A stretch of 64,000 bases of DNA, from the sequence record PQ352352.2; one strand, given 5' to 3'. The stretch's first letter is position 1, and each line of letters starts with the position of its first letter. Positions 59,340 through 60,755 of the stretch are shown piece by piece. Under the pieces are notes generated by a model that saw nothing but the letters and a program-made list of their open reading frames with translations, made no database searches and was not told where the DNA came from. The DNA comes from Escherichia phage vB_EcoM_PTE-Eco15. Position numbers and translations under genes: made by a program.

Positions 59340-60480
59340 ATGGCATTCACTGTCACGTTATCTCCTCTAACTCCTACAGGGGTTATTGGAGGTTCACAAA
59401 CATTCACTGCTACACCTGCAGGTGAAACCCCAGACGGTACTATTACATACGTCTGGACTGTAGATGATATAACACAGGGCTCTACGGCTGCTACAATGGA
59501 TTATACTCTTGCTTCTCCAGCAGGAACAAAAAAAATTAAAGTGGTTGCAACTAATACACTTTCCGCAGGAGATCCGGAAATAGCTGAAGCATCAACAACT
59601 ATCACTGTTAATAAGAAAGAAAATAATTCCACTATCACTGTTACTCCGGCTTCTCCTGCGGCAGTAGAAATTGGAACAGCAACAACATTCACTGCTAATG
59701 TAAGCAATCAACCTATTGGTGCTGCTATTGATTATACATGGAAAGTTGACGGGGTCGATGTTGACGGTCAAAAGCAATCAACCTTTGAATATACACCAAC
59801 AACTGAAGGAACTAAGTCTATAACTTGCTCTGTCACAGTGACTGCAACTGATTACGTTGATAAAACAGTAGAATCATCAGCGGTTTCTTTGACTGTAAAT
59901 AAAAAGGCTAATTCTTCGACGCTAAAAATTACACCCGAGTCTCCGACTACAGTCTTTGGTGTTCCTATTACTTTAACTGCAAATGTCTCTAGTGCACCTT
60001 CAGGTGCTACTATAACATTCCAATGGTCAATGGATGACAGTAATATTCCGGATGCAACTTCTGCTACGTATAAATTCACTCCGACCGAAGTCGGAAGTAA
60101 AACTCTTAAATGCACCGCATCTGTTTCTGCAACAAATTATGTTACAAAAGAAATTTCAGCAGAAGCAACAGTAGTAACTAATAATGCGACATTTAATAGT
60201 GCCACCATTTCTTTATCTCCGCCATCAGTTAATACTACTGTTGGTGGAACTGCAACTTTAACAGCATCTGTTACTGGTGCTCCTGGTGATACTAATATTG
60301 TGTACTCTTGGAAGAAAGACAACGTAGCAGAAAGTAATTCTACTAATACTTATAGTATTGATACCTCCTCAGCGGGTACTCATACAATTAAAGTTGAAGC
60401 AGTATTAACTAAAGATAATTACACTTCAAAGACAATTAGTTCAACAGCTGAAGTTGTTATTGCTGAACGGACTCCAATTG
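59340..60480 (+). repeat. four tandem ~285-bp coding repeats (Ig-like domains) within hoc
   Basis: each unit has the pattern T(V/I)TP.SP...G....T(A/F)TA...followed by Y.W..D and a conserved Cys; units end ...VNKK.N.ST. Confidence 0.7.
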
Positions 60481-60755
60481 AACCAGAAGGTGAATTGCCT
60501 TATGTTCATCCTCTTCCACATCGCACTTCAGCTTACATCTGGTGCGGTTGGTGGGTTATGGATGAAATCCAAAAAATGACCGAAGAAGGTAAAGATTGGA
60601 AAACTGACGATCCAGATAGTAAATACTACCTGCATCGTTACACTCTTCAGAAGATGATGAAAGACTATCCAGAAGTTGATGTCCAAGAATCGCGTAATGG
60701 ATACATCATTCATAAAACTGCTTTAGAAACTGGTATCATCTATACCTATCCATAA
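59340..60755 (+). CDS. hoc: highly immunogenic outer capsid protein Hoc with four tandem Ig-like domains
   Basis: 471 aa; four ~95-aa Ig-like repeats followed by the conserved capsid-binding C-terminus EGELPYVHPLPHR...YIWCGWWVMDEIQKMTEEGKDWKTDD. Confidence 0.85.
   Translation: MAFTVTLSPLTPTGVIGGSQTFTATPAGETPDGTITYVWTVDDITQGSTAATMDYTLASPAGTKKIKVVATNTLSAGDPEIAEASTTITVNKKENNSTITVTPASPAAVEIGTATTFTANVSNQPIGAAIDYTWKVDGVDVDGQKQSTFEYTPTTEGTKSITCSVTVTATDYVDKTVESSAVSLTVNKKANSSTLKITPESPTTVFGVPITLTANVSSAPSGATITFQWSMDDSNIPDATSATYKFTPTEVGSKTLKCTASVSATNYVTKEISAEATVVTNNATFNSATISLSPPSVNTTVGGTATLTASVTGAPGDTNIVYSWKKDNVAESNSTNTYSIDTSSAGTHTIKVEAVLTKDNYTSKTISSTAEVVIAERTPIEPEGELPYVHPLPHRTSAYIWCGWWVMDEIQKMTEEGKDWKTDDPDSKYYLHRYTLQKMMKDYPEVDVQESRNGYIIHKTALETGIIYTYP

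Follow-up and report, generated by a model that had tools for sequence, protein, structure and literature searches.

The window analysed here is a 64,000-nucleotide (nt) stretch of the genome of Escherichia phage vB_EcoM_PTE-Eco15 (sequence record PQ352352.2), and the gene under study is hoc, which encodes the highly immunogenic outer protein of the capsid. It occupies positions 59340..60755 on the plus strand as an uninterrupted open reading frame (ORF) of 471 codons plus a stop, beginning with ATG. A Shine-Dalgarno-like AAGGA, read directly from the sequence, lies at 59329..59333 on the plus strand, 6 nt 5' of the hoc ATG, sharing bases with the stop codon of inh (58650-59330), the neighbouring gene upstream. 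An intrinsic-terminator-like G+C-rich hairpin, AAGGGGCTTCGGCCCCTT, followed by the T-run TCTTCATTTT, spans 60760..60787 on the plus strand, starting 5 nt past the hoc stop, and a rho-independent terminator is annotated at the same site in phage DalCa. The gene product matched the 'Hoc-like head decoration' family PHROG 1149 (E 3.2e-136) and T4 Hoc (PDB 5vf3_Z, 376 amino acids (aa); E 1.6e-141), and the gene order inh-hoc-24.3-24.2-rnlB-24 is that of T4, RB69 and DalCa. Homology to T4 Hoc residues 281-376 is thus accompanied by a string of immunoglobulin (Ig)-like domains, by the conserved hoc locus and by an isoelectric point (pI) of 4.72, close to the 4.74 of T4 Hoc and within the acidic range (about 4-5) reported for Hoc homologues (PMC10385173).

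Alignment with T4 Hoc fell into two blocks, window residues 1-190 with T4 residues 1-190 and window residues 289-471 with T4 residues 194-376, leaving about 98 window residues (a gap at 191-288) with no T4 counterpart. The protein was cut into residues 1-92, 93-189, 190-286, 287-383 and 384-471 and compared with itself. All six pairs among the four segments of about 95 aa were mutually similar (local alignment z-scores 9.5-24.7 against 200 shuffles), and the four segments showed no resemblance to the C-terminal 88 residues (z 0.1-3.3). Among 14 Pfam families matching at E <= 1, which included Ig_3, PKD, I-set, PKD_3 and Ig_2, three exceeded their gathering cut-offs: Ig_3 at 34.9 bits (cut-off 30), PKD at 30.3 (23.5) and I-set at 29.1 (23.7). 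An AlphaFold2 model built from a 30-sequence alignment contained four successive all-beta domains over residues 1-375 with a predicted local distance difference test (pLDDT) score of 88-96. The top Foldseek matches of the model in the PDB were four-Ig fragments (Dscam1 Ig1-4, ICAM-5 D1-D4 and Sidekick Ig1-4), and the three-domain crystal structure of RB49 Hoc (3SHS) was also found, at E 5e-11.

The four Ig-like domains follow one another on the plus strand. Domain 1 (59340..59615, aa 1-92) corresponds to T4 Hoc domain 1 at 61% identity and was modelled as a beta-sandwich with pLDDT of about 90-95. Domain 2 (59616..59906, aa 93-189) corresponds to T4 domain 2 at 55% identity, contains one Cys, ends in the linker SLTVNKK and holds the best Pfam PKD stretch (residues 100-174). 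Domain 3 (59907..60197, aa 190-286; pLDDT 91-96) is the extra domain and has no T4 counterpart. Domain 4 (60198..60488, aa 287-383) corresponds to T4 domain 3 at 41% identity, and the best stretches of both Ig_3 and I-set fall at its residues 290-360. The remaining 88 residues (60489..60752, plus strand, aa 384-471) form the C-terminal domain, predicted to bind the capsid. This domain is identical to that of T4 Hoc at 87 of 88 positions, matched PHROG 21694 (E 8.8e-42) and contains E450-S451-R452-N453-G454, invariant in the Hoc alignment and corresponding to the Glu-Ser-Arg-Asn-Gly motif described as conserved in Hoc C-terminal domains (PMC10385173, legend to Fig. 7). The initial annotation had called the gene hoc and described four Ig-like repeats of about 95 aa ahead of a recognisable capsid-binding C-terminus, compared with three domains and about 376 aa for T4 Hoc; each of these points, the T4 length included, agrees with what we found, as does the self-alignment it had proposed. 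Its suggested Pfam check was borne out as to the presence of Ig-like folds and not as to the family it named, since Big_2 (PF02368) was not among the 14 families.

The DNA of the gene is a mosaic, which we mapped by sliding-window identity, by mismatch positions and by identity per region. Identity to the window is 97% in T4 and 67-68% in Mosigvirus over inh, 59% in T4 and 96-99.4% in Mosigvirus over the Ig block (59340-60480), 97% in T4 and 92.5-96.6% in Mosigvirus over the part encoding the C-terminal domain, and 98% in T4 and 64-66% in Mosigvirus over the downstream segment 60790-61320. The tract resembling Mosigvirus phage RB69 accordingly extends over approximately 59240..60480 on the plus strand, where identity is 95-99.4% to Mosigvirus phages and 59% to T4; it comprises the final 30 or so inh codons, the ribosome-binding site of hoc and the entire four-domain Ig region. 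The mismatch map placed the 5' crossover at 59235-59243, within those last codons of inh, and the 3' crossover where Ig domain 4 meets the C-terminal domain, at about 60480-60530. The Ig block of the window is 100% identical at the DNA level to that of DalCa, in which the allele is likewise surrounded by T4-like flanks, and 99.4% identical to that of Mosigvirus NRG-P0074; the Mosigvirus Ig blocks differ from one another by up to 5%.

The full-length allele was present in 30 of 652 hoc-matching phage records. Compared by hoc DNA, the window is 99.4-99.6% identical to DalCa, Paracelsus, PYps35T, F26, HEMP5, a15, Pinarejo, ES19 and ES21 (99.6% to the annotated hoc of DalCa and of Paracelsus) and 96.1% identical to RB69 hoc. 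All seven of the taxonomy-checked matches at 95-98% belong to Mosigvirus and represent several species (RB69, JS09, 0157tp3 and c120). At the protein level the window Hoc differs from DalCa Hoc (AYP69742.1) by the single substitution M440I and from RB69 Hoc (AAP76093.1, 471 aa) by 16 substitutions. It is because of the one difference from DalCa that the exact window protein was absent from the protein collection searched.

Taken together, these data led us to consider it roughly 85% probable that the window carries an RB69-type, that is, Mosigvirus-type, hoc allele within a T4-like (Tequatrovirus) genome, encoding a four-Ig fibre whose Ig block was gained by homologous recombination between the genera. 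Under this reading an Ig block of about 1.25 kb would have been exchanged, one crossover falling within the 3' end of inh and the other where the conserved C-terminal domain begins. Between the Ig blocks of the window and T4, exact DNA matches that could serve as internal crossover sites reach 16 nt at most, so a swap of the whole block must use its flanks. The simplest course would be recombination into a Tequatrovirus backbone in an ancestor that the window phage shares with the DalCa-like phages, and from the sequence comparisons the transfer ran most probably from Mosigvirus into the DalCa-like Tequatrovirus lineage. The extra domain would then be an old, diverged copy of the middle-domain class that was not duplicated in the window phage.

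Several points weigh against this reading or complicate it. Tequatrovirus classification was confirmed for DalCa only among the carriers at 99.4-99.6%. The DNA encoding the C-terminal domain (60489-60755) is 92-97% identical between the two genera, compared with 64-68% for the flanking genes (comparison loci L001 and L004-L009). As this segment is so much more conserved than its flanks, more than one exchange of hoc is probable, and these may have run both ways; the pattern suggests either repeated inter-genus exchange or homogenisation. In addition, hoc of the Mosigvirus phage OLB35 is a different one, partly of T4 type and with the length of a three-domain gene. Lastly, the AlphaFold2 model is unreliable in the C-terminal domain (pLDDT <55) and was left unused there, so that the capsid-binding claim rests on identity to the T4 domain resolved by cryo-electron microscopy.

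A rival reading is that Tequatrovirus is the original home of the four-Ig allele, kept there as an old polymorphism and passed on to Mosigvirus. What is seen in Mosigvirus genomes resembles what such an import would leave behind: the whole of hoc including the C-terminal domain and its terminator (approximately 59235-60780) is 92-99% identical to Tequatrovirus between flanks of 64-68%, and the OLB35 gene implies that exchange was not one-way. Against such an export, several Mosigvirus species carry the allele, in versions up to 5% divergent, and the identical Ig copies of the window and DalCa are nested inside that diversity. Furthermore, the C-terminal part of the window gene is closer to T4 (97.0%) than to NRG-P0074 (92.9%), even though NRG-P0074 is its nearest relative in the Ig block, which puts a crossover at the border of Ig domain 4 and the C-terminal domain in the window lineage. 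We therefore regard an origin within Tequatrovirus as unlikely, and gain from Mosigvirus as the better account. Two of the Mosigvirus genes compared appear disrupted in the deposited genomes: OLB35 hoc (L011 1201-2331) contains a stop codon in frame and its middle part is scrambled, and NRG-P0074 hoc (L004 1501-2917) is annotated as two coding sequences, 1501-1701 and 1703-2917. Either true pseudogenes or errors of sequencing could lie behind this.

The initial annotation had explained the fourth domain by in-frame tandem duplication, which we took to mean a recent step from a three-Ig T4-type protein to a four-Ig one in the window lineage. The extra domain is indeed of the middle-domain class, being closest to T4 domain 2 (39% protein identity) and window domain 2 (38%) and sharing their single Cys. 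Window domains 2 and 3 are nevertheless merely 38% identical, with 35% for domains 3 and 4 and 27-29% for the remaining pairs; neighbouring domains span 29-38%. Tandem Repeats Finder reported no array in hoc, and a direct-repeat search of the gene returned nothing of domain size, the longest repeats being 16-32 nt at 63-88% identity. Nor is the difference from T4 confined to one domain, as all four Ig domains, the extra one included, differ from the T4 type (59% over the Ig block DNA), and the same allele is carried by RB69 and many Mosigvirus phages.

To place the domains within the family, those of 123 Hoc proteins (window, T4 and RB69 Hoc together with the 120 best database clusters) were clustered, yielding seven types. 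The T4-type allele reads B-A-C (79 proteins), a 472-aa allele B-A-A-C (29 proteins) and a 568-570-aa allele B-A-A-A-C (8 proteins), and the window, RB69 and cluster P0001 share the string G-D-E-F (3 proteins). Types G, D and F correspond in diverged form to B, A and C (61%, 54% and 44% identity, respectively), and the types nearest to E, the extra domain, are both of the middle class (A at 41% and D at 38%). Recent duplication does occur in Hoc, as the domain copies within the B-A-A-C and B-A-A-A-C proteins are 73-85% identical; judged from these sequences, however, the young duplications of a T4-domain-2-type middle domain sit in those A-A alleles and not in the window allele. Outside the window allele, the best match to the extra domain in a BLASTP search for an orthologue among 136 representatives at 50% identity was 42% identical, and of 50,697 phage records searched with tblastn, 30 contained the domain at >=94.8% identity, with one more match at 51%. 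Its middle-class affinity and shared Cys make an ancient duplication of the middle domain a plausible source. Since the whole four-domain block is the RB69/Mosigvirus allele in a T4-like backbone, any such duplication is old and happened elsewhere. A recent duplication in the window lineage is consequently very improbable, and the earlier interpretation was supported in part: the four domains stand and the tandem duplication does not. That the RB69-like block was mis-joined to a T4-like backbone during assembly of a mixed phage sample is hardly credible, for although the junctions lie in conserved sequence, where assemblers may switch template, this hoc allele is found at 99.4-99.6% identity in at least 10 GenBank records, several carriers agree with the window over 24 kb at about 96-97%, and DalCa has the same T4-like flanks.

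The database clusters also include alleles that mix T4-type and RB69-type Ig domains. Cluster P0002 and phage CCU7 (L010 649-2352) encode a B-A-D-E-F protein of 567 aa joined at '...SLTVNKK|ENNS...', P0011 encodes G-D-C joined at '...SLTVNKK|TMNP...', P0004 encodes A-E-F joined at '...SLTVNKK|ANSS...', and P0013 encodes B-A-D-C with its junction inside a shared 'TPASPAA' motif. Three of the four junctions thus fall at the SLTVNKK linker; all were read from protein sequences alone, and some of the mosaics come from single metagenomic contigs (P0004 from one of 3.3 kb), so a few could be assembly artefacts. An 11-nt stretch, GTTAATAAGAA, is common to the linker between window domains 1 and 2 and that between T4 domains 2 and 3. 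This pattern suggests that Ig modules are shuffled in frame at the linkers. Tentatively, and with somewhat less than even confidence, we extend this to a broader model in which the Ig block would be a cassette exchangeable across Tevenvirinae genera, bracketed by two unusually conserved arms, one being the 3' end of inh and the other the C-terminal domain, and with the linker T/S-L-T-V-N-K-K as an in-frame joint at which Ig modules are shuffled, duplicated and deleted. B-A-D-E-F, G-D-C, B-A-D-C and A-E-F would be products of that joint, and the two processes together would generate diversity in fibre length and ligand specificity under environmental selection.

As for function, homology to T4 Hoc (87 of 88 residues) suggests that the C-terminal domain would anchor Hoc to the capsid, one monomer per gp23 hexamer at its centre, and that the four tandem Ig-like domains would project from there as an acidic fibre. 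The T4 Hoc fibre, with three Ig domains and the C-terminal domain, is reported to measure about 180 A (PMC10385173), and the extra Ig module would lengthen it by roughly 40-45 A. The expected role would resemble that proposed for Hoc, namely weak adhesion to glycans or surfaces and keeping particles dispersed (PMC10385173, PMC13435897). As the Ig domains with T4 counterparts are just 41-61% identical to them, ligand preferences may differ from those of T4 Hoc. For the same reason, and with a fibre one module longer, binding specificity and antigenicity need not equal those of T4. A Hoc with four Ig domains bears on phage display and on the mucus-adherence model, although it carries little weight beyond correct annotation. 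The mapped swap and the linker shuffling provide an example of modular evolution in a dispensable surface protein, and the choice among natural Hoc scaffolds of various lengths could be guided by such a map.

Beyond hoc, a 205-aa ORF on the minus strand (57983-58600) adjoins inh and was assigned as segE-like by position and length alone, its place and length being those of the T4 GIY-YIG homing endonuclease gene segE. It is absent from DalCa and RB69, in both of which uvsW lies directly beside inh, and NRG-P0074 and ESh27 have a different gene of 744 nt at the segE position, annotated in NRG-P0074 as a homing endonuclease. No exact T4 late-promoter motif TATAAATA was found on the plus strand upstream of inh or hoc. 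The sole exact copy near inh-hoc, at 58629-58636 on the minus strand, falls within the 49 nt that separate inh from the segE-like gene, and we therefore assigned no hoc promoter; across the whole window the motif occurred 12 times against 9.8 expected, which is not above chance. Downstream of hoc, past 24.3-like and 24.2-like ORFs and rnlB, lies gene 24 (62362-63645, minus strand). The rnlB gene (RNA ligase 2; 61335-62332, plus strand) is split into ORFs of 127 and 198 aa with the break near 61661, where 7 bp (TTGATTA / TCGATTA) following '...CAGAAGAATG' are missing relative to T4 and DalCa, causing a frameshift at about T4 residue 110. The DalCa annotation also gives rnlB in two pieces, broken at another position.

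Among known systems, the closest is DalCa (Tequatrovirus ecomdalca), which shares the 471-aa Hoc, the identical Ig-block DNA, the T4-like flanks and the terminator. It differs in lacking the segE-like gene that stands between uvsW and inh in the window, as in T4, and in where rnlB is broken; with about 96% identity over 24 kb, the window represents a different phage with the same hoc allele. RB69 (Mosigvirus RB69; AY303349, deposited in 2003) likewise has a 471-aa Hoc with G-D-E-F and the C-terminal domain, positioned between inh and 24.3, but its surrounding genes are 64-68% identical to those of the window, in which the C-terminal domain is T4-type. T4 Hoc (NP_049793.1; PDB 5VF3, 8T1X, 8T9R) and RB49 Hoc (PDB 3SHS) share the string of Ig-like domains, and T4 Hoc also the C-terminal domain, acidic pI and locus; T4 Hoc differs in having three Ig domains and 376 aa, to which the window adds one middle-class domain, with counterparts 41-61% identical.

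Variation in domain number is itself well documented. Fokine et al. (2023) described 650 Hoc homologues as 'strings of Ig-like domains', the number reaching 10 in Serratia phage Muldoon and being one or two in some variants (PMC10385173), and the Hoc-like protein of Klebsiella phage PMBT63, of 468 aa, was explicitly described with four (Ewertz et al., 2026; PMC13435897). The comparison of Hoc lengths that the initial annotation had proposed agrees with this, as the 120 best 90%-identity clusters fall at 375-379 aa (80 clusters), 468-472 aa (31) and 567-570 aa (9), corresponding to 3, 4 and 5 Ig domains. The 50%-identity representatives that have the C-terminal domain leave N-terminal room for 0 to about 15 Ig-sized units, two being commonest and four occurring in eight representatives. 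Given the RB69 protein, public since 2003, and this published variation, a four-Ig Hoc is already known; what our analysis adds is modest, namely an inter-genus swap with mapped ends and mosaic alleles joined at a conserved linker. The 472-aa B-A-A-C and 568-570-aa B-A-A-A-C alleles and PMBT63 resemble the window Hoc in placing extra Ig domains in mid-string ahead of a conserved C-terminal domain. In the 472- and 568-aa alleles, however, recent copying of T4 domain 2 accounts for the extra domains (73-85% identical), whereas that of the window is a distinct, old type.

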